Shown: positions 14,450-29,621, numbered from the stretch's first letter. The stretch: DNA of 64,000 bases from Candidatus Woesearchaeota archaeon (GCA_018646625.1 JABGUJ010000001.1:5534-69533), one strand, 5' to 3'. Made by a program: numbers and translations. The notes: a model not told the origin generated them from the sequence alone.

Positions 14450-15228
14450 TGCAACACCTTTTTCTCCAGAAGCATGAATAACTTGTTGATTGCATACCCC
14501 AATACTCCTGTTAGTATAATGGCAGAATACATTTCAGGAATCTTATAAACCAATTGAGCATCTAAAATTCTATGACCTAATCCTACATTTGTACCAATGA
14601 ACATCTCCACCACTATTACTATAATCAAACAAAGCGATACTCCAAGACGATACCCTGTTACGATTTCAGGTAAAGACTCTGGAAGAATAACATGTCTAAA
14701 TAATTTAAAACCCTTAGCCTTATAGGCTCTTGCTGCTCTTAATCTTAACTTGTTGGCGTGCTTCACACCATACATGGAATTAACTACAATTATCAATGTA
14801 GAACCCCATACGGCGATTGCAATCTTAGCTGCGTCCCCTATTCCAAAAAAAAGCAAAAACAATGGAAACAAAGCAGTTGCAGGAATAGATCTAAAAAAAT
14901 CTACAACAAATTCCAAAGAATAATACACTTTTTTAAAATAACCCATCATCATTCCAATCGGTGTACCGATAATTATAGCAAGAAAAAACGAAACAAATAC
15001 TCTAACAAACGTTGCACCAACATCAGGTAAAATTTCCGCACTTAAACAAAGCCCTACAAGCTCACTAAACACAGTCCAAGGACCGGGAAGAAACAACGCA
15101 TTCACTAATTCTAAACTAGATGAAAACTGCCAAATCAAGATAATTAAGAGAGGCGTTAACAACATGTATCCTGTACGTCTAGTACCATCCTTATCCGAGA
15201 GAGTTTTGAGAAATTCTAACCTACTCAT
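14434..15228 (-). CDS. ABC transporter permease (NitT/TauT family, SsuC/ThiX-like)
   Basis: Six TM helices and EAA-like loop AARAYKAKGFKLFRHVILPESLPEIVTG. Confidence 0.8.
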   Translation of the reverse strand: MSRLEFLKTLSDKDGTRRTGYMLLTPLLIILIWQFSSSLELVNALFLPGPWTVFSELVGLCLSAEILPDVGATFVRVFVSFFLAIIIGTPIGMMMGYFKKVYYSLEFVVDFFRSIPATALFPLFLLFFGIGDAAKIAIAVWGSTLIIVVNSMYGVKHANKLRLRAARAYKAKGFKLFRHVILPESLPEIVTGYRLGVSLCLIIVIVVEMFIGTNVGLGHRILDAQLVYKIPEMYSAIILTGVLGYAINKLFMLLEKKVLHYSGR

Positions 15229-15989
15229 CTTGCCCCCCCATCATCTTCAAAAAGATCTAGAACTTTGTTTCTAATCTTGTAGAACCGTTCATCACGTAAC
15301 ATCTCAAGAGTTCTAGGTCGAGGCAAATCAACTTTAACAATCCCTTTAATTTCAGCAGGACGTTTAGATAATACTACAACCCTATCAGCGAGCAAAACAG
15401 CCTCATCAATTTCATGAGAAATAAACAAAGTGGTCTTCTTGTTTTCTCTCCAAATCTTCAATAATTCCATCTCCATTTTCCTAGAAGTATGATAATCCAA
15501 AGCAGAAAATGGTTCATCCATCAACAAAACATCAGGATTAAATGCTAAAGCTCTACAAATTGAAGTTAACTGCTTCATTCCCCCGGACAATTGATACAAA
15601 AATTTATTGTGGTGTTCCCATAAATTTACTTTCTGCAACAATTTGTTACCAACTTGTTCCCTTTTCGCTTTAGACACACCTTCCATCTCCAGACCAAAAG
15701 TCACATTGTCTATCACAGTTCTCCAAGGGAACATACTATCATGATAATTCTGAAAAACAAAACCCACTCTTGCATGCTCGGGATTTTTTTTATTTATAGT
15801 AACTCTACCTTCAAAGTCAGTTTCTAATCCACACAAAACATTAAACATTGTAGTCTTACCACACCCGTTAGGACCAAAGAAAGTTACAAATTCTCCCTCC
15901 TCAATATCGAGAGAGATATCTCTAATAGATTCAGTAACTGGATCATCATAATATGTTTTTTTAAGATTCTTGATCTTTATGTAAGTCAT
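15225..15989 (-). CDS. ABC transporter ATP-binding protein (NitT/TauT family)
   Basis: Walker A GPNGCGKTT, signature LSGGMKQ, Walker B LLMDEPFSALD; overlaps permease by 4 nt. Confidence 0.88.
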   Translation of the reverse strand: MTYIKIKNLKKTYYDDPVTESIRDISLDIEEGEFVTFFGPNGCGKTTMFNVLCGLETDFEGRVTINKKNPEHARVGFVFQNYHDSMFPWRTVIDNVTFGLEMEGVSKAKREQVGNKLLQKVNLWEHHNKFLYQLSGGMKQLTSICRALAFNPDVLLMDEPFSALDYHTSRKMEMELLKIWRENKKTTLFISHEIDEAVLLADRVVVLSKRPAEIKGIVKVDLPRPRTLEMLRDERFYKIRNKVLDLFEDDGGAR

Positions 15990-16485
15990 CTTGTCTCCCG
16001 TTCAAATAAAGTTGAGTTTCGGTAATAGCAGCATTCATACCTAAAGCCCAAGCACCCGCACAGATCATTGTTATTCCTGGCTTAGGAGTACCAGAAAGAT
16101 AATGAAATGCAGTAAACACACCTATATTAATCGCATATAACGTCAACATTCTAGGATACGCACTTTTTCTAGTTGTATATTTCTGAGGAATAGATCTATA
16201 GACCCTGCCCAAAGCAACACTATATGTCAATTGAAAAGCTAGTTGTTTTACAACAGTCAAAACACCTCTTCCGCTGCCGTCTTCATTCACACCTAAAGTA
16301 ATTGCGTAAAATCCACCATTTTTAGCAACTGCAAAACCAAAGTCTACTTTGTTCACAGTCTTAAAAAGATGTTTTGCACGTTCATAATGATTAAAGACAC
16401 AACCGCAAAGCGATTCGACAGTATCATTAATACGGATGCTAGTTTTCAGAACTATATCCTCTAATGAACCTCGATTAAATTCCAT
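15961..16485 (-). CDS. Hypothetical protein in the ABC transporter operon
   Basis: 174-aa ORF overlapping the ATPase start by 29 nt; no recognised motif. Confidence 0.35.
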   Translation of the reverse strand: MEFNRGSLEDIVLKTSIRINDTVESLCGCVFNHYERAKHLFKTVNKVDFGFAVAKNGGFYAITLGVNEDGSGRGVLTVVKQLAFQLTYSVALGRVYRSIPQKYTTRKSAYPRMLTLYAINIGVFTAFHYLSGTPKPGITMICAGAWALGMNAAITETQLYLNGRQDDLHKDQES

Positions 16486-16493
16486 GCTCCAAC

Positions 16494-18338
16494 CTAATAA
16501 AACAACCCGCTAACATTAATTCTCGAATCAAGATGCCCTGCCTCAAACATTTTATCTGCATAATGTTGTACTGACGTAGAATCCAAATCATCAGATCCTA
16601 AGAAGGGCACAATCATCAAATGTTCAACCATTTCTGAATCCACGTTTGCATATTCAATCAAGTATTGTGCAGCAATCTCGGGATTATCATTGATAAACTT
16701 CGCAGCTCGATCTTGTATTCTAACCAATTTATCCGCCAAAAGAAGATCATCAGTAACCAAATCAGAACTCATCACGCTACCAGATACCAAATCAGTGAAG
16801 TAAGTTACATATACCGCATCAACTAATGCCTTAGCAATTCCTTTTTGTATTGCATAAGTACCCATAGGCTCTAAAACCAAAATATCATCAACACTACCCG
16901 ATTCTAATGCATCGACAAGCAACGAAGGCGCCATTTGTATATATTCAAAAAATACATTTTCCGTACTCATAAGCTCCTCCACAATAACTTTAACACCAGA
17001 ACCAAGATATATCCCTAAGGTCTTGCCTTCAAGATCTAGTATGTTATTCATATCAGAATCCGCTTTAACTAAAATTCTTTGCAAAAAATGATCCTCATCA
17101 CCCTTAGCCAATCCAAATATCTTAACCGCATCCGAATGTTGTTGCTGAAGATAAAATAACGCTAAAGTATTCACACCACCAAAAGAAGCATGAACCCTCT
17201 CCGCAAGTATGGCCTCAATCATTGTATTGGTAGATTCAAACATAACGAGCTCCGCACTAAGTCCTTCGTCTTCAAAATAACCCTGTTCTTTCGCAACAAA
17301 CACAGGAAGATACTGCCCATGACCTCTATATCCAATCACAACCTCATGAACAGCACTCGGAGATTGATAGTAAATATTGCTAGTATCAACTTTAGTATCA
17401 AGAATATTTTCTTCATACAAAATATTAGCCATCTCTTGTGTTTTTTCTCTAAATTCATAAGTCAGATCAGAAGATTCTCCTAAAACATAAAACTGAGTAT
17501 ACGGAGCAATCTCTTCAGTCAACTTAGTATACTTAGGTAACAATTTCTTTGCTTCAAACTCATTTTCTTTAATGATTTTTAAAGCACGATCAAAAGCCCT
17601 GACAACTTTATCGGCATCAGCAGGACGACGTTCAACAAAATCAGATGAAAAAAATCCTGCACCAACAGGATAAGGATTCATAATATATTTGGCCCTTGGA
17701 GCTTTTTCTAGTATCTTAGCCATACCTTGTGAAACACCAATTGAACAGAACGGCTCAATAGTCAACAACGCATCAAACTGTTCATCAACTAATCCTTGTA
17801 ATTGTAATAACTTATCAACTTGTATAATTTCAGCAGCATCTTTGCTACCAAAAACATTCTTGAATATCAAAGTTAAACTAAGTTTTTGTGTTGTACCAAT
17901 GTACGTACCAAAAGATTTGCCTTTTAATTCAGAGATATCCGTTACATTAGAGTCAACATTGACCATCAAACAAGATCCTGAATGATTCAAGTTTTCAAAA
18001 GCAGGATAGAATATCTGAAATGCTCCAGGACTCTGTTCCTCAATCGGCAAATAACTAGTAACACCAATAAAAGCTTTATCAATTCTCCCTAAAACAACAT
18101 CATTCAAAAGAGTATTACCATCTCCATATTCAATATATTCCGCTACTAACCCTTCATCTTCCAAAAAACCATTCTCCAAGACAATAAAATCAGGAAGAAA
18201 TGCGCTAAGTTCCAGATAACCAATTCTAACTGGCTCACCATCTACTAAATTACCATTAACAACATTGCCAGTACCACAACCAAATAAAAAAAGTAAAAAA
18301 GTTAGTAAAATAAGTATTGTTCTCATTCTACACCCCAC
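16494..18338 (-). CDS. Lipoprotein with two tandem NMT1/SsuA-like solute-binding domains
   Basis: Lipobox LFGCGTGN; two internal repeats each starting with an RIGY/VIGY-type motif (PVRIGYLELSAFLP... and VVIGYRGHGQYLPVFVAKEQGYFEDEGL). Confidence 0.7.
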   Translation of the reverse strand: MGCRMRTILILLTFLLFLFGCGTGNVVNGNLVDGEPVRIGYLELSAFLPDFIVLENGFLEDEGLVAEYIEYGDGNTLLNDVVLGRIDKAFIGVTSYLPIEEQSPGAFQIFYPAFENLNHSGSCLMVNVDSNVTDISELKGKSFGTYIGTTQKLSLTLIFKNVFGSKDAAEIIQVDKLLQLQGLVDEQFDALLTIEPFCSIGVSQGMAKILEKAPRAKYIMNPYPVGAGFFSSDFVERRPADADKVVRAFDRALKIIKENEFEAKKLLPKYTKLTEEIAPYTQFYVLGESSDLTYEFREKTQEMANILYEENILDTKVDTSNIYYQSPSAVHEVVIGYRGHGQYLPVFVAKEQGYFEDEGLSAELVMFESTNTMIEAILAERVHASFGGVNTLALFYLQQQHSDAVKIFGLAKGDEDHFLQRILVKADSDMNNILDLEGKTLGIYLGSGVKVIVEELMSTENVFFEYIQMAPSLLVDALESGSVDDILVLEPMGTYAIQKGIAKALVDAVYVTYFTDLVSGSVMSSDLVTDDLLLADKLVRIQDRAAKFINDNPEIAAQYLIEYANVDSEMVEHLMIVPFLGSDDLDSTSVQHYADKMFEAGHLDSRINVSGLFY

Positions 18339-20167
18339 ATAAGATCCATAACATCTATTGGTTTCTGAATGATTTCCGCATCATAAAGAAAATCAGCCAA
18401 TTCAACATACTTATCATGTTGCGCATCTTCAATAGGATATTGTTCCATCAAAGGCACAGCAAAGGCCACATCTCTAGACAAACCCATATATTTAATCAAA
18501 ATCTCTCTCGCCTCGTCCGGATTCTCATCAATAAAATCCTGCGCATAAACAATAGCCCCCTTAAATCTTTTAGCAACATCTTCTTTATTCTCAATAAACT
18601 TAGTAGACATCGCACCACAACCAATATATGCCGGTTGTACCGCATCAGCAAATATGTTCCAAGAAATTGCTTTTACATTGCCTTGCAACAAAGCCACAGT
18701 CACAGTTGGTTGATAACCAAACAAAGCATCAATAGCTCCAGAGTTTAATGCATTCAATTGTTGAGAAGGTACTAACTTAATTAACTCAACAGACTCAGGA
18801 TCTACTCCCCTCTTACTCAAAAAAGTTTCAAAAAACAACGAAGCCGTTGAACCAGGAAATACTCCCACCTTCTTACCTACTAAATCATTCATCTCATTAA
18901 TGCCAGAATTATTCAAAGTCAACAACGCAGAAAAATTCGCAGTACCTGATTGTTCAGTCGAAGTATATATCATCAAATTACCAGGATTTAATGCCTCTAT
19001 AGCCAAAACCGGGACAACAGAAAATTCCACCACCGCATCAATACTATCTTGGACCAATGCTTCAGCCAATAAATTAGAACTCTCAATTAATTGATCTTCC
19101 ACTTGCAAACCATTCATCTCAAAGAAACCTTTCTCCTCAGCAACAAAAAGTGGCAAAGTAGGAACAATTTTTACATAGCCCACTCTAACCTTATCAAGTT
19201 TTTTTCTAGGTAATAACAGACTATTCGCGTCTATTTTTTTTTCAATAATACCAGAATTATAAAAGAAGTCTATATTATTCTGCAACACAAAAGGATCAAT
19301 ATTCTCTGCTTGATACAACAACGGTAATTTATCAACAACATCTTTCGCCAAGCCTATGTTATTTGAAAGAATACCCCTAGCAGAATCAGGATTATTAACT
19401 AAATAATCACTAGCTTCCATCATTGCTTTCTTCAGCCTAAGTACAACATCAGGATTCATTTCATAAAACCTAGTGGATATTGCATTAACCCCAATATAAG
19501 AAGACTCAACCGCATAAGAATACACATTTTCTTCTAATACTCGAACATCATAATTATGTATCAACATTGTTTTAAGAGGATCATAAGCCAGCAAGGCATC
19601 AATCGCTCCAGAAAGAAATGCTTCCATATGCAAACTTCCTTGCATCCGTACAAAATCGATAGAACTTACATCAACCCCTTCAGACGATAGTAAATGAGCA
19701 AGAATATTGGTTGCAGTAGTACCTGGATAAACTCCAATCTGTTTACCTTCAAGATCAGATAATGATCTGATCACAGAATCATTCTTAACCACCAATGCAG
19801 TAAATCCATGCTCCCTAGTCATTGGCCTAGCAAACAACAATTTAACCATACCAGGAGAAGATGATTCACTCATCAATATTGGAATAACTGATAGTGCAGA
19901 TGCAAAATCAATCTCATCAGTAAGCAAAGAATCAAGAGCCATATTAGAACTTCCTAATAAAACAGGTTCAACCTTAAGATTATATTTTTCAAAGAAACCC
20001 AAATCTTTTGCAACAAAATAAGTTAAACTGGGAGCAATATTTTGATACCCTATTCGAACTACATCATAATCTTGCTTTTCGCTCATTACAACATTTGCAT
20101 TAGTACCACAACCCAAAAATGAGCAGGTAATCAAAACTAAAAGTATCATACATAGTATCTTATCCAT
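18323..20167 (-). CDS. Paralogous lipoprotein with two tandem NMT1/SsuA-like solute-binding domains
   Basis: Lipobox FLGCGTNA; repeats VVRIGYQNIAPSLTYFVAKDLGFFEKYNL and VRVGYVKIVPTLPLFVAEEKGFFEMNGL; identical length (614 aa) to neighbour. Confidence 0.7.
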   Translation of the reverse strand: MDKILCMILLVLITCSFLGCGTNANVVMSEKQDYDVVRIGYQNIAPSLTYFVAKDLGFFEKYNLKVEPVLLGSSNMALDSLLTDEIDFASALSVIPILMSESSSPGMVKLLFARPMTREHGFTALVVKNDSVIRSLSDLEGKQIGVYPGTTATNILAHLLSSEGVDVSSIDFVRMQGSLHMEAFLSGAIDALLAYDPLKTMLIHNYDVRVLEENVYSYAVESSYIGVNAISTRFYEMNPDVVLRLKKAMMEASDYLVNNPDSARGILSNNIGLAKDVVDKLPLLYQAENIDPFVLQNNIDFFYNSGIIEKKIDANSLLLPRKKLDKVRVGYVKIVPTLPLFVAEEKGFFEMNGLQVEDQLIESSNLLAEALVQDSIDAVVEFSVVPVLAIEALNPGNLMIYTSTEQSGTANFSALLTLNNSGINEMNDLVGKKVGVFPGSTASLFFETFLSKRGVDPESVELIKLVPSQQLNALNSGAIDALFGYQPTVTVALLQGNVKAISWNIFADAVQPAYIGCGAMSTKFIENKEDVAKRFKGAIVYAQDFIDENPDEAREILIKYMGLSRDVAFAVPLMEQYPIEDAQHDKYVELADFLYDAEIIQKPIDVMDLMWGVE

Positions 20168-20217
20168 CTTGACCTCCAGAACACCCCTACAACTCTAAAG
20201 AGACAGAAAGCGAATTA

Positions 20218-20266
20218 TATAACTTTAATCCTTATAAGTTATAACTTTCTATCAATATATAACTTT
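20218..20266. repeat. Three direct copies of TATAACTTT (20218, 20240, 20258) in the divergent promoter between the SBP gene and the AbrB-PhoU regulator
   Basis: Read directly from the sequence. Confidence 0.35.
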
Positions 20267-20307
20267 TTTAGAAACACTTAAATAAAAGCGCGAACTACCA
20301 TAATTCG

Positions 20308-21246
20308 ATGAGAAGGAAAGTTATACAGCAAAATCCCACCACATTAGTAGTCTCATTACCAGCAAAATGGGCAAAAGCAAACGAAGTAACAAAAGGCGAT
20401 GAGTTGGACATTTCGGAACAAGAAGATAAACTAATTGTAAGCATAGCAGATCAATCAAAAAGAAAAGAAAGGACCGTCACATTAAATTTTAATAAAAAAC
20501 ATTGGGAAATCCCAAATAAAAAATATAAATATGTTCAAAGAATTCTTGCAGCACCATACAAAGCAGGATATGATGAAATCATAATAAGATCCGATTGCAA
20601 AGAAGTTTTAGAATACATCGAAAAAAGAGTTGAAACGTTCATAGGAATAGAAATAATTGACCAAGGAAGAGATTATTTCAAAATAAAAAACCTGGTTTCA
20701 GGGTTAGATGAAGAGTTTGATAATGTCTTTAGAAGAACATTACTAATAACAAATCGATTTGCCACAGAATCATTGGAAATAATAAAATCAAAAGAATATG
20801 ATGATCTAAAAAATCTTCTAAGACTAGAAAAAACCCATAACAAGATAACTGATTTCTGTAAAAGACTATTGGCAGCAAAAGACTACGATTCACCAAAGAA
20901 AACAAGATACCTTTATGCACTCATTGCAGAGAATGAAAGACTTGTCGACGAGTATAAAGACATCTGCAAATACATATTGAATAGTAAAAATCCAGAAATC
21001 AGCAAGGAAATTGTTACACTTCTAGAAGATACAAACAAATTAGTAGTACAATACTCAAATTCATTCTTTAAATTTGATCTCGAAAGCATCCACACATTAA
21101 CAAAAGGCTTTTGTAAAGAAGAAGAAACTGCGCTGCAATTATTCGATAAACCATCAACAAAAGATAAGAGAATAGTACATCACATTTTAAACATATTAAC
21201 AAAGACATACGAAATGGGCGAAGCCTTTCTAGAAATGAATATCTAA
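20308..21246 (+). CDS. AbrB/SpoVT-domain plus PhoU-like domain protein (putative regulator)
   Basis: N-terminal swapped-hairpin motif TTLVVSLPAKWAKANEVTKGDELDI; C-terminal helical PhoU-like repeats. Confidence 0.5.
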   Translation: MRRKVIQQNPTTLVVSLPAKWAKANEVTKGDELDISEQEDKLIVSIADQSKRKERTVTLNFNKKHWEIPNKKYKYVQRILAAPYKAGYDEIIIRSDCKEVLEYIEKRVETFIGIEIIDQGRDYFKIKNLVSGLDEEFDNVFRRTLLITNRFATESLEIIKSKEYDDLKNLLRLEKTHNKITDFCKRLLAAKDYDSPKKTRYLYALIAENERLVDEYKDICKYILNSKNPEISKEIVTLLEDTNKLVVQYSNSFFKFDLESIHTLTKGFCKEEETALQLFDKPSTKDKRIVHHILNILTKTYEMGEAFLEMNI

Positions 21247-23399
21247 GCACATCTTAGTAAATCCGATACTTCAGACCCAACAGAACAAAGTGCCTTATCT
21301 TCTCTAAATTTATGTGCAACTCGTTCTAACAAACCCTCTGGCGCATCAACATAATCACCAGAAAGATGAGCTGCCAGAACAGATCTCGACACGCCAGCAC
21401 CTTCAACAACACCCGCAACATACTCAGCACCTTCTCTGATTCGCGCATAAAACTCTCTGCTAATTAAACCTGTTAATTGCCTTTGAGTTGCTTCGTAGTT
21501 CTCGACGTTTGAATTAAACCTTTCAAGAACATCAAACACTTTTTGCTTAACTGCCAAAACCTCATCAAGAGATGCCTCAGGCCCAAGAACAGCATAATTT
21601 ACGACAATGTCTTCCGCAATCGACATCCTTTCAGCCGTAGAATAAAACCGTTCTTTAGGCGCGGGCAATGAATATAAAATATTTGTACTTTCAACTCTAT
21701 GAGGAGTAAACAAACCCTCAACATCTTGAGTTTTCAAATCAATACCATAGTGAACCCCTAATTCAATATCTTTATTATGCCAAAAAACTCTATCCATCCA
21801 ACCAGTATTCTCAGCATACATTTCATCAAAAGCATCTTTAATCTTAATCGATAATCCCTTTGCACGATCCGAAGAAGTATTCCCTCTAGAATCTAAGAAG
21901 GCTCTAAACTCAATTTCAACACCAAACTCCGCAAACAACTCTTCAACTTCCCGCTTAGTATCTCCACCTTTTACCCAATCATCATAAACATAAACCTTCT
22001 CTCCAGGCTTGACATCACCAAACCTAGATCTAAAAGCATCTAACTGGAGCTGCTTCGCATTAGAATTCAACATAGAATAAATCCAAAAATGTCTTTCCTC
22101 CATCACATCTAAAACAGGAGCTAGCTCATCTCTCGCAACACGCATCTTCTCTTCATCACCGCTCTGCCTATACTGTTTCTCTTTTTTTCGTAAAGCAGAA
22201 ATATCTCCTAATGCTTTCCGAACAGCACCAACATCACCAGAATAACTATCTGCAAAATCATCAGTTCTAACATAAGCTTCAGTCACTTTTTTTGCAGAAG
22301 TAAATTTAAAATAATCCACACTTGCATCTAACTTAACATCTAAAGTCGCAGACATTGCTTGCATCATCTTACCAATAGGTCTTGCACCTCTATCTGCAAT
22401 GAAAACCCTATCAACACCATTCTGAATTATATCTTCCAAATGCGGAAGAACAGCAAAAGCAAGACGACGAGCATCAATGTAATGCTCTCGTTGTTGTTGT
22501 CTCTTTTGTTGAGTCGGCGCAGCCACCACAGATCTAACATTTCTTGAATAGTCGCCCAAAGTATGATAGACAAAACCAATAGGAAGACCATTCTTCTCAG
22601 AAAAATCTCGCACTAAATCTAAATCATCACTAATACGATCAAGATTATCTTGCAATCCACATAAATGTTCAGCAGGAGTACCAACCACCGTACTGTAATT
22701 ACCATCATCAGTACAATCTTCGAATTGATCAATCAAACCTTCAACATTATCACGCACTGCAACCATAAAAGCAGGAGAACCATAATCAGTAAGAAATTTA
22801 CGATCTCTATCATCAAGAAAGTTATCATACAAATCCCAGAACTCAGGTTCCACAGGAGTAAAAGAAGAAGCAGTTTGTCTTATCAGATCAGAAAAATTCT
22901 CATCAGGATCCCGAACATAACATTCTGCCAATTGTACAAAAAAAGCAGTCCGATTATAATCCATGTTGTAAAGCAAAATATCATGCACAATACCACTAGC
23001 ATTAGTAACTTCTTTTCCAGCAAGAATCTCTTCCATAGAATCACTCAAACCATAACGTCGCAAATGATCTTTATAATCAGAAGAATTACCACCACAAACA
23101 CAGTGACCACTTAAGTCATCACAACCAACATAATTATCCTCTTTAATATTCTCTTGGTCATCTGCAAAGAAGTTACCGAAAAAATAAGCAGTCGTACAAT
23201 GATCACCATCACGCTGAGCATAAACATTAGCAAGCTTTTGAAGAACTTCTATTTTATCAAGTGGAGATTCCTGAGAAATATTACGCCTCATCTCCCAGCC
23301 TGAACTGACAGGAGCACTAGGATTACATCCAAACAACATACTAGCAAGTACAGCAGTGCTAATAACTCTACCAAATCGACTGAAAGGATTTAAAGCCAT
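21243..23399 (-). CDS. Large secreted lipoprotein of unknown function (718 aa), Asp/Arg-rich
   Basis: Signal peptide with lipobox SMLFGCNPS; composition unlike the Lys-rich housekeeping proteins. Confidence 0.5.
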   Translation of the reverse strand: MALNPFSRFGRVISTAVLASMLFGCNPSAPVSSGWEMRRNISQESPLDKIEVLQKLANVYAQRDGDHCTTAYFFGNFFADDQENIKEDNYVGCDDLSGHCVCGGNSSDYKDHLRRYGLSDSMEEILAGKEVTNASGIVHDILLYNMDYNRTAFFVQLAECYVRDPDENFSDLIRQTASSFTPVEPEFWDLYDNFLDDRDRKFLTDYGSPAFMVAVRDNVEGLIDQFEDCTDDGNYSTVVGTPAEHLCGLQDNLDRISDDLDLVRDFSEKNGLPIGFVYHTLGDYSRNVRSVVAAPTQQKRQQQREHYIDARRLAFAVLPHLEDIIQNGVDRVFIADRGARPIGKMMQAMSATLDVKLDASVDYFKFTSAKKVTEAYVRTDDFADSYSGDVGAVRKALGDISALRKKEKQYRQSGDEEKMRVARDELAPVLDVMEERHFWIYSMLNSNAKQLQLDAFRSRFGDVKPGEKVYVYDDWVKGGDTKREVEELFAEFGVEIEFRAFLDSRGNTSSDRAKGLSIKIKDAFDEMYAENTGWMDRVFWHNKDIELGVHYGIDLKTQDVEGLFTPHRVESTNILYSLPAPKERFYSTAERMSIAEDIVVNYAVLGPEASLDEVLAVKQKVFDVLERFNSNVENYEATQRQLTGLISREFYARIREGAEYVAGVVEGAGVSRSVLAAHLSGDYVDAPEGLLERVAHKFREDKALCSVGSEVSDLLRCA

Positions 23400-23896: not shown

Positions 23897-25033
23897 TTAA
23901 ACAAAAACAAATTTTTCTTTTTCTACCATTTTTATTGCAAGAGGCTTAGACACATCTCCAAATTCATCGAACGTAGTCAATCCTCCGACACCCCTATAGT
24001 CAGTAACACCATATAACTCATCTCTAATACAGATAGAGTCTTGGCCACAAACTTCTAGAGCTAAAGCAATAATCATAACAGCATCATAGCTATCTGCTGC
24101 AGTTCTCTCAGGCAAATCACCATAACGAGTAACAAAGTCATCAACAAAATCACCAATGATCATATCATCACTCTCAGGATCGAATGCAGGTGCAGTGTAA
24201 AGTATACCATCAGCCGCTTCACCAGCCACATCAAGTAAATCTTGACTTTCAATAATCACAGGCGCTAAGATTTGTGATTCAATACCCAATTCTTTTGCTT
24301 GTTTAACAGCCAACTCAAGTGACAAACCAGCAAAATAAACAACATCCGAATCGGATGACTTAATCTTAATCAACTGTGTTCTAAAATCATTAACAGATTT
24401 ATCATAAGACTCCTGCACAATAACCTCACCACCCAGTTCCCTAAATCTTGTAACAAACGCATCATTGTAATCTACACCATTAGCTAAATTCAAAAACAAC
24501 GTCGACGCAGTCCTCGCACCCAACACATCATAAGCATACTCAGCCATATACTTTCCATGTACATCTCCACTTATACTGTTCCTGAAAACAAAATCTCCTG
24601 CATCACGAATTCTAGGAGCAGATGCAACCGTAGAAAAAACAACAGTTTGCGAGATCTCAGCAACTGGAGCTACAGCCATAACGTTTGATGAACTTGTAGG
24701 ACCAATAACAACAGAAACTTTGTCATTATCAATTAATTTTCTAAGTGCCAACAAAGCCCTAGTCTTATCAAACATACTATCCTCATACACAACTTCTAAT
24801 CTTTTACCGCTAATGCCGCCTTTAGAATTAATTTCTTCAACAGCTAAATCAACACCTTTTCTAACATTCTCTGCATGCCATGCCGCCTTCCCAGTAAAAG
24901 GTTGAACCGCACCGATCTTGATAACATCATCTTCAACAACTTGAGCAGTAATTTGACTTGAACCGCAACCACCCAAAATAATGATCATAAATAAAGCTAA
25001 AGCTATCTTAAATTTCATTTGTAGTACCTCCAA
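23897..25033 (-). CDS. LivJ-like (Peripla_BP_6) solute-binding lipoprotein, orphan (cassette 1)
   Basis: Lipobox ILGGCGSS; N-terminal IKIGAVQPFTGKAAWHAENVRKGVDLAVEEINSKGGISGKRLEVVYEDS typical of the Leu/Ile/Val-binding family. Confidence 0.75.
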   Translation of the reverse strand: MEVLQMKFKIALALFMIIILGGCGSSQITAQVVEDDVIKIGAVQPFTGKAAWHAENVRKGVDLAVEEINSKGGISGKRLEVVYEDSMFDKTRALLALRKLIDNDKVSVVIGPTSSSNVMAVAPVAEISQTVVFSTVASAPRIRDAGDFVFRNSISGDVHGKYMAEYAYDVLGARTASTLFLNLANGVDYNDAFVTRFRELGGEVIVQESYDKSVNDFRTQLIKIKSSDSDVVYFAGLSLELAVKQAKELGIESQILAPVIIESQDLLDVAGEAADGILYTAPAFDPESDDMIIGDFVDDFVTRYGDLPERTAADSYDAVMIIALALEVCGQDSICIRDELYGVTDYRGVGGLTTFDEFGDVSKPLAIKMVEKEKFVFV

Positions 25034-25139: not shown

Positions 25140-25838
25140 ATGAAAGAAGCGCTAAGAGAGTATGGGCTTTCAGACAACGAAGCAAACGTATATCTAGCAG
25201 TTCTAAAGTTAGGAGAATCACCCGTAACAGATATAGCCAACAAAGCCAACACTTACAGAACCTTAACGTACGAAGTCCTAAAATCATTAGAAGACAAAGG
25301 TTTAGTCAGCTCAGTAATAAGAGATAAGAAAAAACATTTTATTGTAGCAAGCCCTGAAAAATTATTACAAGGATTAAAAGAAAAAGAAAGAAGAATTCAA
25401 GAAATCATGCCAGACCTATTATCAATTCACAAATCTGTTTCTATTAAACCGACAATGACCGTATATTCAGGTACAGAAGGAATCAAAAATATTTTCCAAG
25501 ACATTCTTAACGTTGGAGAGGATTTCATAGCCATTGCATCAGTTGAACAAGTCAGATCAAAAATTGATTTTATGTTTAAACACTTCATATTAAAAAGAGT
25601 TGAACTGAAAATGAAGGCTAAACTAATTATTGACAAAGAACCACTAACAAAAGAACTCACAGAGTACAAAGTAATGGATTTTAGTGTACCAACCCTTCTA
25701 TATGTATACGCAAATAAAGTTGCAGTAATAAATGTTGGAACTGAATTAGTAGGAATGATAATTGAAAGTGAGGATTACGCTAAAACACAAAAAATGATGT
25801 TTGATTGGATGTGGAACACAGCTAAGAGTAAGCCATAG
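25140..25838 (+). CDS. TrmB-family HTH transcriptional regulator, short form (cassette 1)
   Basis: N-terminal LREYGLSDNEANVYLAVLKLGESPVTDIANKANTYRTLTYEVLKSLEDKGLVSS matches the TrmB HTH. Confidence 0.7.
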   Translation: MKEALREYGLSDNEANVYLAVLKLGESPVTDIANKANTYRTLTYEVLKSLEDKGLVSSVIRDKKKHFIVASPEKLLQGLKEKERRIQEIMPDLLSIHKSVSIKPTMTVYSGTEGIKNIFQDILNVGEDFIAIASVEQVRSKIDFMFKHFILKRVELKMKAKLIIDKEPLTKELTEYKVMDFSVPTLLYVYANKVAVINVGTELVGMIIESEDYAKTQKMMFDWMWNTAKSKP

Positions 25839-26952
25839 GAATACTATTTCTAATAACTTTAGGAGCTAAAACTTTACCAAAACCGCCAGTAACAGAATCA
25901 TAGTCTAAAACACCAGACGCACCTTGATAATTTCTCAACATTGCAACATACGCGCCTAAACAATCACTATTGAACTTAGAATTTTCACATTTGACTAATG
26001 CATTCTTCAATATCATCAATGCATCATAGCTATCTCTATTAACAATACCACTACTACGATTATAACGAGACATAAACTCAGACTCAAACCCTTTATCAAC
26101 AATACCAGAATAAACATACAATACCCCTTCATCAGCACCAGCCGCACCTTGAATCTCGTACGGTTCCTCGACAGCCATATCAGACAACAAAGTTAAATTC
26201 AAACCCAACTCCCTCATCTGATTAAATATTAATCCGCCCCTACCATAAAGAACAAGTATTGCATCAGCACCAGATTCAGAAATCTTAGCTAACCGAGTTC
26301 TAAAATCAGAATCCGAATAATCATAACTTTCAACAACTGTCAACTCACCACCTAAATTCCTCAACGTACTACCAAAAGCCCCAATATAAGCTTGCGCCCA
26401 ATCATTGTCAATGTGAATCACACCCACTTTTCGAACACCAGACTCAAAAGCAACTTTAGCCAATTCTTCACCTTCGCGACCTATCAAAAATCTCGTACTA
26501 AAATAATATTTAGTCAACTTACCAAAATTATCCCCAGGAGTAATTAGAAAAACTTTTTTCTCATCCACCAAATTTGCCGCAGCTTTAACAGAAGAACCAC
26601 AAAATGGACCCAACAAAGCAACAACATCATCCATCTCAACTAATTTATGAACGGCATTAACAGTATTCTGAGGTCTACAACCATCATCTTCGTAAACCAA
26701 CTCAATTAATCTACCATTAACACCACCTAAAGAATTAATTTCTTCGAGAGCCATTTCAAATCCGTCCCGCATACGTTCACCATAAAACGCAATCGGACCT
26801 GCAAAAGGACCTACCACTCCAACCTTAATCGGCTCTAGCTCCACACTCTCCTCTACAACATTATTAGAACAACCTACAACAAACAAAAGCAACAAAATCA
26901 TAAAAAATGCTAGTCTCATAGTATATTCATTAACAGAAGCATATTTAAACAT
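25822..26952 (-). CDS. LivJ-like solute-binding lipoprotein, orphan (extra copy)
   Basis: Lipobox VVGCSNN; IKVGVVGPFAGPIAFYGERMRDGFEMALEEINSLGGVNGRLIELVYEDD. Confidence 0.75.
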   Translation of the reverse strand: MFKYASVNEYTMRLAFFMILLLLFVVGCSNNVVEESVELEPIKVGVVGPFAGPIAFYGERMRDGFEMALEEINSLGGVNGRLIELVYEDDGCRPQNTVNAVHKLVEMDDVVALLGPFCGSSVKAAANLVDEKKVFLITPGDNFGKLTKYYFSTRFLIGREGEELAKVAFESGVRKVGVIHIDNDWAQAYIGAFGSTLRNLGGELTVVESYDYSDSDFRTRLAKISESGADAILVLYGRGGLIFNQMRELGLNLTLLSDMAVEEPYEIQGAAGADEGVLYVYSGIVDKGFESEFMSRYNRSSGIVNRDSYDALMILKNALVKCENSKFNSDCLGAYVAMLRNYQGASGVLDYDSVTGGFGKVLAPKVIRNSIPMAYS

Positions 26953-26971: not shown

Positions 26972-27622
26972 ATGACACTTATTGTAGGTATTGACGAAGC
27001 AGGACGTGGACCAGTCATCGGACCATTAGTTATTGCAGGGGTAATGATCAATGAAAAAGACGAACCAAAACTAATCAAATTAGGCGTAAAAGATTCTAAA
27101 CAACTTACGGAAAAAAGAAGAAATGAGTTATTTCAAGAGATTAAAGACTTAGGCGTAGAATATGAAATTCTAATCATACATCCAGAAGAAATTGATGAAA
27201 CTCTAAGAAGTCCATCATCTAACTTAAACTGGTTAGAAGCAGACAAATCTGTAGAAATAATAAAAAAATTAAAACCTGATGGCGTCATATTAGATTGTCC
27301 ATCAACCGTTCCAGAAAAATACAAACAATATGTTGAACAAAAACTCAAAGACAAAACGAACGTGATTGCAGAACATAAAGCAGACGATACATATCCGGTA
27401 GTCAGTGCAGCTTCTATCTTAGCAAAAGTAACAAGAGACGCAGAGATTGAAGCAATAAAAAAGAAATACGGAGACTGCGGATCAGGCTATCCTTCAGATC
27501 CTAAAACTCAAGATTTTCTTAAGAAAAATTTTAAGAAATTTCCTGAAATATTCAGACAAACTTGGGAAAGTTACAAAAATATAATAAGAAAAAAAGAACA
27601 AAAAGGTTTAGGAGATTTTTAA
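26972..27622 (+). CDS. rnhB: Ribonuclease HII
   Basis: IVGIDEAGRGPVIGPLVIAGV catalytic motif and C-terminal SAASILAK motif. Confidence 0.88.
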   Translation: MTLIVGIDEAGRGPVIGPLVIAGVMINEKDEPKLIKLGVKDSKQLTEKRRNELFQEIKDLGVEYEILIIHPEEIDETLRSPSSNLNWLEADKSVEIIKKLKPDGVILDCPSTVPEKYKQYVEQKLKDKTNVIAEHKADDTYPVVSAASILAKVTRDAEIEAIKKKYGDCGSGYPSDPKTQDFLKKNFKKFPEIFRQTWESYKNIIRKKEQKGLGDF

Positions 27623-28755
27623 GCATCTACAAACTCGCCATCCCTAAACACTTTCAAGATAAAATCGCTTTCATCTCTTATAACATCTCCATTGTGATCA
27701 AATCTAAGACGACCAGAAGAACCTTCATGATCTACCCCGTATAATCCGTTTTTTATACAGACCGGATCTTCACCACACTGCTCTAACAACCCGGCATAGA
27801 TATATACAATATCATAAGCCAAGTAAGGATGAATTGTTGGTTCCTTCCCAGCAATCTCAATATATTTCTCTCGAAAACGTTTAGTCTTAGGATTATCGCT
27901 CTCCATATCAAACTCATAAAAGGAATATATTCCTTCAGCAGCCTCTCCCGCAATCTGATAAACTTCAGGACCCCACGAAGACGGATTAATCATAAATGGA
28001 ACATCAATACCCAACTCTCTTGCTTGTTTAACTATCAGACCCCCTTCTTCTGAATGAGACACAAAAAACATAACATCAGGATCACCCGACTTTATTTTCA
28101 AAAGATAAGTTCTAAAATCATGATCTCCGGTCTCAAACTTTTCATAAGCAATAATCTCGCCGCCCAACTCTTCAAACTTCTTCACAAAAGCATCTCCTAA
28201 CCCAACACCATAATCAGAGTTCTTCACAATAACTGCAGCTTTCTTAGCATTAAGAACTGAAACCGACTTTTCAGCAATCTTAAAAGCTTCAACATCGCCA
28301 GCAACCTTGGCCCTAAAAGTAAAATCGCCAGCATATCTCAAGTGAGGAACCGCAGAACCCGGAGTAAATATAGGAATTTGTGATTGCTCAGCAAATGGCG
28401 CAATGTACAAACTATTAACAGTCACATCACTTATCACTGCACTAACACCTCTTGCGGCTAGACTTTGAAATGCTTTTATCGCTTCCTTAGGTTGAGCCAT
28501 ACTATCTTCCATAATAATCTCTAAACGTTTACCATTTATTCCACCATTAGAATTAATTTCATCTTGCGCAATCTGCACGCCTCTCCACACCCTAACACCA
28601 TAAGAATCAGAATTCGCCCCACTCATTGGCATGACCGCCCCAATAGTATAAACTTCTTCTTGCTTAACTACTTCACCAGTAACCCCACATCCAACTATAA
28701 ACATCAAAGCTAACGCTACTAACAATAATCTTAATTTCATTTTTACCTCCAACAA
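27619..28755 (-). CDS. LivJ-like solute-binding lipoprotein, orphan (cassette 2)
   Basis: Lipobox IVGCGVTG; YTIGAVMPMSGANSDSYGVRVWRGVQIAQDEINSNGGINGKRLEIIMEDS. Confidence 0.75.
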   Translation of the reverse strand: MLEVKMKLRLLLVALALMFIVGCGVTGEVVKQEEVYTIGAVMPMSGANSDSYGVRVWRGVQIAQDEINSNGGINGKRLEIIMEDSMAQPKEAIKAFQSLAARGVSAVISDVTVNSLYIAPFAEQSQIPIFTPGSAVPHLRYAGDFTFRAKVAGDVEAFKIAEKSVSVLNAKKAAVIVKNSDYGVGLGDAFVKKFEELGGEIIAYEKFETGDHDFRTYLLKIKSGDPDVMFFVSHSEEGGLIVKQARELGIDVPFMINPSSWGPEVYQIAGEAAEGIYSFYEFDMESDNPKTKRFREKYIEIAGKEPTIHPYLAYDIVYIYAGLLEQCGEDPVCIKNGLYGVDHEGSSGRLRFDHNGDVIRDESDFILKVFRDGEFVDA

Positions 28756-28868: not shown

Positions 28869-29621
28869 ATGAACACAGAATTACTAAGAGAAATTGGCCT
28901 AACAGACTCTGAAATAAAGGTATATTTAGCATTATTAGAACTAGGATCATCTACCGCGGGACCGATAATAGAAAAATCAAAAGTAACATCATCAAAGATT
29001 TATGAAATACTAGAAAGGCTGATGCAAAAAGGATTAGTTAATTTTGTTATCAAATCTGGAACTCGCTACTACGATACACAATCTCCTTCAAGACTAAAAG
29101 AATATCTACAAGAGAAAAAAAGAACAATACAAGAACAAGAAATCGAAATTGAGAAACTAATTCCGCAACTTGAAATTAAAAGAGAATTAGCGAAGAACAA
29201 GAACGAAGCTTCAATCCATAAAGGCATCAAAGCAATTAAAAATTTCTACCTAAACATATTAGATGAGCTAAATCCAGGAGATGAATATTTTGTTCTTGGT
29301 GCAAATTATGGAGATCACGCAATGGGCATAAGATCCTTTTTTCATAAATACCACCAACAAAGAGCAGATAAAAAAATCAAATTAAATATGCTAGTAAACT
29401 CAGATACAAGAGGCACACTAGTAGAAACTACCGCCCTCAACTCGGAAGTTCGTTACCTCCCCCCGCATTTAATGAGTAACATGACAACAGTATTTTACAA
29501 AAACAAAGCATTTATTTTCTTCCTAACATCAGAACCCACCGGCTTCTTAATAGAAAGCAAAGAAGTCGTTGACGGATTTAGGTCATACTATGACACTTTC
29601 AAGAGAATAGCAAAAAAATAA
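28869..29621 (+). CDS. TrmB-family HTH regulator paralogue (cassette 2)
   Basis: LLREIGLTDSEIKVYLALLELGSSTAGPIIEKSKVTSSKIYEILERLMQKGLVNF. Confidence 0.7.
   Translation: MNTELLREIGLTDSEIKVYLALLELGSSTAGPIIEKSKVTSSKIYEILERLMQKGLVNFVIKSGTRYYDTQSPSRLKEYLQEKKRTIQEQEIEIEKLIPQLEIKRELAKNKNEASIHKGIKAIKNFYLNILDELNPGDEYFVLGANYGDHAMGIRSFFHKYHQQRADKKIKLNMLVNSDTRGTLVETTALNSEVRYLPPHLMSNMTTVFYKNKAFIFFLTSEPTGFLIESKEVVDGFRSYYDTFKRIAKK

Follow-up and report, generated by a model that had tools for sequence, protein, structure and literature searches.

How does a single ABC (ATP-binding cassette) translocator come to be served by four substrate-binding domains, and are these copies of one receptor or different receptors? 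The question is raised by two adjacent genes, here called A and B, at positions 16,494 to 20,167 of a 64,000-nucleotide stretch of DNA (the window) from a Candidatus Woesearchaeota archaeon (GCA_018646625.1, JABGUJ010000001.1:5534-69533). An earlier description made from the sequence alone (the sequence-only reading) had recognised in them two lipoproteins with two NMT1/SsuA-like binding domains each, explained the arrangement as a duplication of a duplication, and thought first of thiamine precursors as ligands. The computational analysis reported here leads to a somewhat different picture. The locus probably encodes a type I importer of the NitT/TauT kind in this marine Woesearchaeota (DPANN) archaeon, in which two lipoproteins carry four non-equivalent substrate-binding domains (SBDs) of NMT1/SsuA fold that would have arisen by expansion and fusion of single-domain genes.

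The two proteins are laid out alike. A signal peptide ending at a lipobox cysteine (Cys20 in A, Cys17 in B) is followed by a tether of ~15 amino acids (aa) and a first domain, A1 (aa ~36-317) or B1; a linker of ~7 aa in A (LLPRKKL) and ~8 aa in B then leads to the second domain, A2 (aa ~325-614) or B2. Secondary structure and sequence suggest this geometry of membrane, tether, SBD1, linker and SBD2. Each N-terminus leads from a short charged part through a hydrophobic stretch to a lipobox-like cysteine (..SFLGC|GT in A, ..FLFGC|GT in B), a feature that recurs in two archaeal relatives, P0026 (..VVTGC) and P0027 (..LLFGC), and past the signal peptide neither protein contains a transmembrane domain.

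When the halves are scanned separately, each covers the full SsuA_fam profile, with E-values from 4.5e-35 to 1.5e-22 (Table). The Pfam models NMT1 (PF09084) and NMT1_2 (PF13379) each match two stretches per protein, with 154.2 bits (6.1e-45) and 134.7 bits in A and 93.2 bits (2.9e-26) and 69.3 bits in B. The respective cut-offs being 20.5 and 24.7 bits, whole domains score above the gathering thresholds and belong to the NMT1/SsuA-like superfamily. The four halves open with VRIGY, VRVGY, VRIGY and VVIGY, much as the sequence-only reading had described with its RIGY/VIGY starts, and its count of two SBDs per protein is borne out by the profiles. Hinge and core residues are retained in all four, and of 78 family-conserved positions A1 keeps 55, A2 65, B1 52 and B2 47.

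Table. Features of the importer locus and its flank (positions counted from the first nucleotide of the window)
Feature	Coordinates	Strand	Basis or remark
ABC permease, TauC/SsuC/SaoP-like, 264 aa	14434..15228	-	BPD_transp_1 1.3e-23
ABC ATPase, TauB/SaoA-like	15225..15989	-	ABC_tran 9.7e-30
orf174, orphan 174-aa open reading frame (ORF)	15961..16485	-	between gene B and ATPase
Gene B, lipobox substrate-binding protein, 610 aa (ATG 18326)	16494..18326	-	ORF; NCBI MBT3536994.1 = 610 aa
SBD B2	16497..17345	-	SsuA_fam 1-283/290, 89.1 bits
SBD B1	17370..18233	-	SsuA_fam 1-287/290, 80.2 bits
Gene A, lipobox substrate-binding protein, 614 aa, ATG start	18323..20167	-	ORF; two NMT1/NMT1_2 stretches
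SBD A2	18326..19195	-	SsuA_fam 1-285/290, 120.7 bits
SBD A1	19217..20062	-	SsuA_fam 1-282/290, 121.3 bits, E 4.5e-35
Putative divergent promoter/operator region	20168..20307	.	clustered AAGTTATA / TATAACTTT repeats
Divergent 312-aa protein, N-terminal AbrB/MazE-type DNA-binding domain	20308..21246	+	MazE_antitoxin 4.7e-07, residues 12-44

Structure prediction agrees with the profiles. In the AlphaFold2 (AF2) model of full-length A, the A2 part (residues 321-610) has a predicted local distance difference test (pLDDT) score of 88-98, and B1 modelled in isolation from a 135-sequence alignment reaches a pLDDT of 96.1 with a predicted template modelling (TM) score (pTM) of 0.91. Both models are predicted to adopt the two-lobed class II periplasmic-binding-protein fold. 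Foldseek places the A2 model closest to SsuA (3ksx, TM 0.82 on the target), followed by ThiY (3ix1, 0.79) and TauA (6ssy, 0.79), and the B1 model closest to SsuA (2x26, query-normalised TM 0.83), followed by TauA (0.78), PqqT (0.78) and ThiY (0.73); a thiamin-binding substrate-binding protein (SBP) and Thi5 are also among the neighbours, and identities range from 13 to 22%. The sole solved structure to align across both halves of A is that of GlnPQ (6h30; 563 columns, low TM). All four halves are thus predicted to be complete binding-protein domains. The sequence-only reading would have failed had the second halves lacked this fold; they cover the profile, and A2 is modelled with confidence, as B1 is among the first halves.

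The four domains differ in loop motifs that are conserved in the family. The first loop motif reads SSN in A1 and A2, DGN in B1 and STN in B2; the second is (Y/F)PGxT in A1 and A2, YIGTT in B1 and YLGSG in B2; the third is YDP in A1, YQP in A2, IEP in B1 and LEP in B2. A1 and A2 keep the consensus motifs of the subfamily and B1 and B2 depart from them, B2 being the most derived domain, with its PG motif gone and LGSG in place of PGxT. To judge from these motifs, the four pockets are clearly non-equivalent.

Both SBP genes lie on the minus strand, directly adjacent, and are followed by one ATPase and one permease gene at the positions that had been read from the sequence. A BPD_transp_1 permease and an ABC_tran ATPase beside SBPs are the hallmarks of a type I ABC importer. 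BLASTP over the 64-kb window detected neither a further ATPase or permease related to those of the operon nor a further SBD of the NMT1/SsuA family, so that within the window a single translocator is available to A and B, as had been proposed. The product of gene A is identical to NCBI MBT3406153.1, annotated as 'ABC transporter substrate-binding protein [Candidatus Woesearchaeota archaeon]', and GGAGGT lies 4 nt upstream of its ATG.

The start of gene B needs more care. The longest ORF, chosen by the JGI and Logan gene calls, begins with GTG (16494..18338) and encodes 614 aa; this GTG would give a 16-nt overlap with gene A. The junction reads ...GGT GTA GAATGAGAACA..., in which the stop codon TGA of gene A (18325-18323) overlaps an in-frame ATG (18326-18324) preceded just upstream by GGGGTG. 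Only with this ATG is there a 4-nt ATGA overlap (..GTA GAATGAGA..). Gene B therefore most likely starts at ATG 18326, encodes 610 aa and has a genuine ATGA overlap with gene A. The identical length that had been ascribed to the two proteins holds only with the GTG start (614/614 aa, against 614 and 610 aa with the ATG), and the 4-nt overlap that had been placed at 18323-18338 mixes the two readings: the overlap is real with the ATG, and the coordinates span 16 nt.

Between gene B and the ATPase gene lies orf174, which the sequence-only reading had left out of an otherwise accurate list of SBPs, ATPase and permease. Its start lies 8 nt past the stop of gene B, and its final 29 nt overlap the beginning of the ATPase gene. 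Its codon-usage log-odds amount to +0.40 bits per codon in frame and -0.6 to -0.9 in the five other frames, so it looks coding. Neither Pfam nor NCBIfam contains a match, and a word-indexed search of 5.8 billion clusters returned only orf174 itself. Its C-terminal segments are moderately hydrophobic, with no clear transmembrane helix (Kyte-Doolittle maximum 1.35 over 19 residues), and it could be a candidate lineage-specific accessory protein. GGAG-type Shine-Dalgarno-like motifs precede both orf174 and the ATPase gene, and the ATPase stop and permease start again share an ATGA overlap. Given the two ATGA overlaps, the 8-nt gap and the 29-nt overlap, the genes for A, B, orf174, ATPase and permease probably form one compact, translationally coupled operon, which extends to the whole unit the coupling suggested earlier for A and B. 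Assemblies from JGI, ENA, Logan and NCBI show the same genes in the same arrangement on 22 independent contigs, and the fusion of the SBDs is therefore not an assembly artefact.

The two-domain form is rare among relatives. Scanned exhaustively with HMMER, 1.84 billion representatives yielded 11,190 matches; the best, P0026, is a complete lipoprotein with a single domain and matches A2 alone, at 48% identity. Only three of the 150 best representatives have two domains, namely P0027 (611 aa), P0127 (663 aa) and B itself, although a two-domain query favours two-domain targets; the architecture must therefore be rare. Word-indexed searches with A and B yielded identical clusters and single-domain proteins of at most 30% identity, but those searches (A, B, orf174) missed P0026 and are left out of this argument. 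In locus L008, P0026 is preceded by a divergent TrmB gene and directly followed by an ATPase whose first 25 residues match those of the window ATPase at 19 positions; this operon appears to be orthologous, with one SBD only. P0027 is encoded on an archaeal contig (L009) that also carries ABCE1 and H+-PPase genes, in the order TrmB, single SBP, ATPase, permease, double SBP. In L010 (8001-10708) the gene for P0127 has no adjoining ABC genes and is followed by a 228-aa ORF with a hydrophobic start, for which no Pfam match was recorded, so that P0127 may have no role in transport.

A scan of GTDB species genomes with a 12-sequence alignment found 25 related loci, and here all SBPs are single-domain. 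They come from the Nanoarchaeota, Aenigmatarchaeota and Micrarchaeota (DPANN), the Thaumarchaeota, and the Saccharibacteria, Ryanbacteria and Moraniibacteriota (Candidate Phyla Radiation, CPR), among others. Two Saccharibacteria loci carry tandem SBP genes, three in L011 and two in L026, which lie 0-2 nt apart, are 30-41% identical in pairs and have a signal anchor each. The translocator is better conserved: in the DPANN and CPR relatives the ATPase is 52-59% and the permease 50-57% identical to those of the window (the loci compared were L009, L011, L012, L017, L018, L020-L023 and L026, and include a Thaumarchaeote). Nine loci (L008, L009, L012, L016, L019, L020, L022, L023, L032) have a divergent TrmB-family regulator ahead of the SBP gene; this position beside the SBP gene is found in both archaea and bacteria, and in the window it is taken by an AbrB/MazE-domain gene. 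Since the translocator is conserved across DPANN archaea, a Thaumarchaeote and CPR bacteria and the SBDs of the window are only 23-38% identical to one another, the comparison suggests one transporter subfamily, laterally transferred between domains, with fast-evolving receptors. In three Bacteroidota/Ignavibacteria loci, isochorismatase-like and 418-aa genes follow the transporter; they were considered as a clue to the substrate and rejected, these translocators being 28-30% identical and of another subfamily.

What the four domains bind can be narrowed down only to some extent. SsuA_fam (TIGR01728) is the top curated family for every SBD, yet the single-domain scores in the Table all lie below its cut-off of 163.5 bits per binding protein. 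The whole-protein scores of 236.8 (A) and 164.4 (B) exceed it because two domains add up; for annotation this means that doubled SBPs can pass family cut-offs as whole proteins though no single domain does (80-121). The TauA equivalogs (TIGR01729 / PRK11480) give at best 48.6 / 31.1 bits per domain against cut-offs of 304 / 490. For the SAO system (NF040735, NF040729, NF040733; cut-offs 300/360/295), SaoX scores at most 47.6 bits per domain, SaoA 215.6 and SaoP 163.2. SaoA is also, with TauB (204 bits), the top NCBIfam match of the ATPase, and SaoP, TauC and SsuC are those of the permease, all below cut-off. With every domain below the SsuA_fam, TauA and SaoX cut-offs, the sequence allows no substrate to be assigned; the wider family points to small metabolites, for the most part anionic or heterocyclic. 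A search of the PDB with the subfamily profile gave E-values of 1.6e-37 for an unliganded Bordetella protein (3qsl), 4.8e-36 and 5.4e-30 for SsuA, 8.2e-29 for TauA, 1.4e-28 for a thiamin-bound SBP (4nmy) and 3.4e-15 for ThiY. The SsuA and TauA matches being far above that of ThiY, SsuA/TauA-like is, at the level of profiles, the better description than ThiY-like. The comparison of the three that had been recommended earlier thus points to SsuA_fam as the closest family, without placing any domain inside it.

It would be natural to take the locus for an aliphatic sulfonate/taurine importer of the SsuABC/TauABC kind that scavenges sulfur with four sulfonate-binding SBDs. SsuA and TauA are the best liganded profile matches in the PDB, SsuA structures lead the Foldseek lists, the ATPase is TauB-like and the permease TauC/SsuC-like. 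TauA binds the sulfonate through Gln30 and backbone amides, and SsuA has the Gln as well (PMC6906117). A1 keeps this residue as Q42, which aligns with the GYQ of SsuA from E. coli and Xanthomonas (2x26 and 3e4r), but the position is occupied by V332 in A2, L38 in B1 and R334 in B2 and is not conserved in the subfamily consensus. The shortfall in the family scores (80-121 bits against 163.5 for SsuA_fam, at most 49 against 304 for TauA) and the identity of only 16-20% to all solved sulfonate binders point the same way, and the ~10-kb neighbourhood contains no SsuD, SsuE or TauD-type desulfonation gene. Sulfonate binding by all four SBDs is therefore, in our view, unlikely. The earlier favourite, a ThiXYZ-like importer for hydroxymethylpyrimidine (HMP), formylaminopyrimidine (FAMP) or thiamine, fares still less well and seems very unlikely. 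The Pfam NMT1/THI5 model does match both halves of A and B, ThiY (3ix1), the thiamin-bound SBP (4nmy) and Thi5 are structural neighbours (TM 0.72-0.79), and vitamin scavenging would suit the host-dependent lifestyle of DPANN archaea. However, the subfamily profile separates ThiY (3.4e-15) widely from SsuA (4.8e-36), even if 4nmy reaches 1.4e-28; no thiamine salvage or biosynthesis gene was found in the ~10-kb neighbourhood; related loci carry a TrmB-type regulator; and Rfam detects two tRNAs and no thiamine pyrophosphate (TPP) riboswitch in the window. A literature search found nothing relevant on double NMT1 SBPs or on sulfonate transport in Woesearchaeota.

The history of the four domains is very probably not the one first proposed, in which an ancestral two-domain gene was tandemly duplicated to give A and B. 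Such an origin would fit the collinearity of A and B over their full length (25% identity, 612 columns, E 5e-47), their near-equal lengths, the equal lengths of tethers and linkers, and an 18-nt match (89%) in the lipobox DNA. But whole-gene duplication predicts that positional equivalents are closest, and a domain-wise alignment, the check proposed with the idea itself, gives the opposite: A1-A2 (38%, E 6e-67) and B1-B2 (30%, E 2e-35) exceed A1-B1 (23%) and A2-B2 (27%), with A1-B2 at 25% and A2-B1 at 26%. In a neighbour-joining (NJ) tree of 152 domains, A1+B1 and A2+B2 appear in 0/100 bootstraps, A2 is the sister of the single-domain P0026 (94%), and the nearest neighbours of B1 and of B2 are single-domain proteins; B1+B2 reaches 8% and A1+A2+P0026 21%. 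At the nucleotide level the four segments that encode the domains share no repeat of more than 27 nt, and the duplications behind them are old. Recent gene conversion between halves, which could homogenise them, was considered and rejected, there being no in-register nucleotide repeats other than the lipobox match. Duplication of a duplication is thus unsupported and highly improbable. In the same tree the two halves of P0127 are sisters at 92% and the first domain of P0027 joins a single-domain protein at 100%, so that SBPs have become doubled on several independent occasions. We infer that in this lineage single-domain SBP genes multiplied and fused to give A and B, and that no doubled gene was copied; the simplest route would be that abutting tandem genes were joined and the second signal peptide was lost.

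How would such a system work? According to the preferred reading, with four non-equivalent SBDs on two lipoproteins, A and B would be exported by the Sec system and lipid-anchored at the lipobox cysteine, with SBD1 held ~15 residues from the membrane and SBD2 strung 7-8 residues behind it. Each SBD would close independently on its own small ligand, and the four would compete for docking on a single TauC-like permease dimer energised by the TauB-like ATPase dimer. A precedent exists in GlnPQ, whose two tandem SBDs differ in specificity and affinity and bind independently, the four sites per complex competing for the translocator (PMC8025302). The cooperative capture that the sequence-only reading had considered thus finds no support, the domains acting independently in the one tandem-SBD system that has been studied. 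As the four pockets differ, the proposal is that they widen the range of ligands or affinities open to one translocator, an economical solution for a reduced genome. The alternative that only one SBD per protein works and its partner has degenerated to a spacer or scaffold, leaving two functional sites instead of four, draws on the losses in B2 (PG to SD, PGxT to LGSG; 47/78 positions, with B1 at 52/78) and on the linkers of 7-8 aa, which are much shorter than the 14 aa of GlnPQ and might make it harder for one SBD to dock. The doubt about efficient docking of the distal domain keeps this alternative alive. Nevertheless, all four SBDs cover the full profile untruncated and retain hinge and core residues, B1 is predicted to fold with a pLDDT of 96, a changed specificity would depart from the subfamily consensus just as much, and single-domain relatives, like the second domain of P0027 (49/78), scatter over a similar range. 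On balance a mere spacer function seems rather improbable.

Several points weigh against the picture of four working receptors assembled by fusion, and keep our confidence in it moderate. The A1 half was poorly modelled in full-length AF2, the alignment barely covering it. The reason is that MAFFT aligned almost all homologues with one domain to the second half, an artefact and not evidence against the fold; A1 has the same SsuA_fam score as A2 and is 38% identical to it. The confident models are nonetheless those of A2 and B1, and the folds of A1 and B2 follow from profile matches. Lipid anchoring of A and B is predicted from the motif alone. The tree is an NJ tree of very divergent sequences (Kimura distances 1.2-2.5) with weak deep branches, and its robust points are only A2+P0026 and the absence of A1+B1 and A2+B2. 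Finally, A or B might also serve translocators encoded outside the 64-kb window.

Upstream of gene A, the intergenic region is shared with the divergent 312-aa gene. Of the eight copies of AAGTTATA in the 64-kb window, five lie within 20218-20325; they include three direct copies of TATAACTTT, spaced by 22 and 18 nt, and, at 20236-20247, the palindrome AAGTTATAACTT. The AAGTTATA repeats are candidate operator or TATA elements. For the 312-aa protein, PDB sequence and Pfam searches returned only the AbrB/MazE N-terminal domain, and its position makes it a candidate regulator. On all long contigs this gene adjoins one for a 718-aa protein (21243-23399, minus strand) with a lipobox-like ..SMLFGC and no Pfam or NCBIfam match. 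Further on lie three paralogous genes for lipoprotein SBPs of the Peripla_BP_6 (branched-chain amino acid/urea) type (23897-25033, ~25822-26952 and ~27619-28740, all minus strand), interleaved with TrmB genes (~25140-25838 and ~28869-29621, plus strand) and an RNase HII gene. The ATPase and permease of the operon, used as BLASTP queries, have no other match in the 64 kb, and therefore no related ABC components lie near these SBPs. The window has a GC content of ~35%, and its plus-strand GC skew is persistently and strongly negative, at -0.2 to -0.37 over most of its length; only 6-10 kb and 32-38 kb come close to zero.

What is already known are the deposited, generically annotated proteins, the fold, the class of transporter and the principle of tandem SBDs. 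New are the doubling of NMT1/SsuA-type SBDs in two adjacent predicted lipoproteins, which gives one translocator four different sites, and the comparative picture of a subfamily that repeatedly multiplies its SBDs in DPANN and CPR lineages. Capture proteins with two SBDs are uncommon, not unprecedented, and a literature search found no paper on doubled NMT1/SsuA SBDs in two adjacent lipoproteins. Should the four ligands prove distinct, the locus would be a compact natural case of receptor multiplexing on one ABC translocator, which to our knowledge has been dissected experimentally only in GlnPQ so far. DPANN and CPR episymbionts lack most biosynthetic pathways, and few of their transporters have an assigned substrate. 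With distinct ligands the importer would also point to small metabolites that they take from their surroundings or hosts, and it would be of greater interest still if the four ligands were distinct host-derived metabolites. A more speculative extension, which we put forward only tentatively, is that DPANN and CPR episymbionts with their reduced genomes share a laterally exchanged, usually TrmB-linked importer whose translocator has repeatedly been given multiplied, fast-diverging SBDs, the 2+2 arrangement being the extreme of a general strategy in which four specificities would pass through one pump that scavenges host metabolites.

Among known systems, ThiY/ThiXYZ and the NMT1/THI5 proteins share the Pfam NMT1 match and a fold similar at TM 0.73-0.79. 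Their profile match is, however, much weaker than that of SsuA/TauA, the thiamine context of such systems is missing (salvage genes within ~10 kb, TPP riboswitch in the window), and THI5 proteins are cytoplasmic enzymes, whereas A and B are predicted to be exported lipoproteins encoded in an ABC operon. SsuABC/TauABC of the NitT/TauT family (2x26, 3ksx, 6ssy) resemble the window in the SBP fold (Foldseek TM 0.75-0.83), in permease type (BPD_transp_1, TauC/SsuC-like), in the TauB-like ATPase and in operon logic. The differences are that the window encodes a pair of polypeptides with two SBDs each, that its SBPs are predicted to be lipid-anchored and not periplasmic, and that its SBDs fall below the SsuA_fam/TauA cut-offs at 16-20% identity, with the Gln in A1 only and desulfonation genes not found within ~10 kb.

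In architecture the nearest parallel is GlnPQ of Lactococcus lactis (6h30) and related Gram-positive amino-acid importers, which also carry tandem SBDs on one polypeptide and four sites per translocator. There the SBDs are amino-acid binders of sub-cluster F-IV fused to the permease, joined by a linker of 14 aa, and the four sites stem from a homodimer. A and B have SBDs of the NMT1/SsuA family and linkers of 7-8 aa, are predicted to be free-standing lipoproteins beside a separate permease, and supply the four sites from two different genes. By descent the closest systems are the DPANN/CPR loci with several SBPs (L009, L011, L026, L012), which share the orthologous translocator (ATPase 52-61% and permease 51-56% identical) and likewise offer it several diverged SBDs (in L009, one single and two fused). 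Most of these relatives have a divergent TrmB gene where the window has the AbrB/MazE-type gene, and in the Saccharibacteria the SBDs are separate genes with their own anchors. Fusion is limited to P0027, P0127 and the window, whose 2+2 arrangement looks like the fused and most expanded form of a recurring theme of several SBDs for one translocator.

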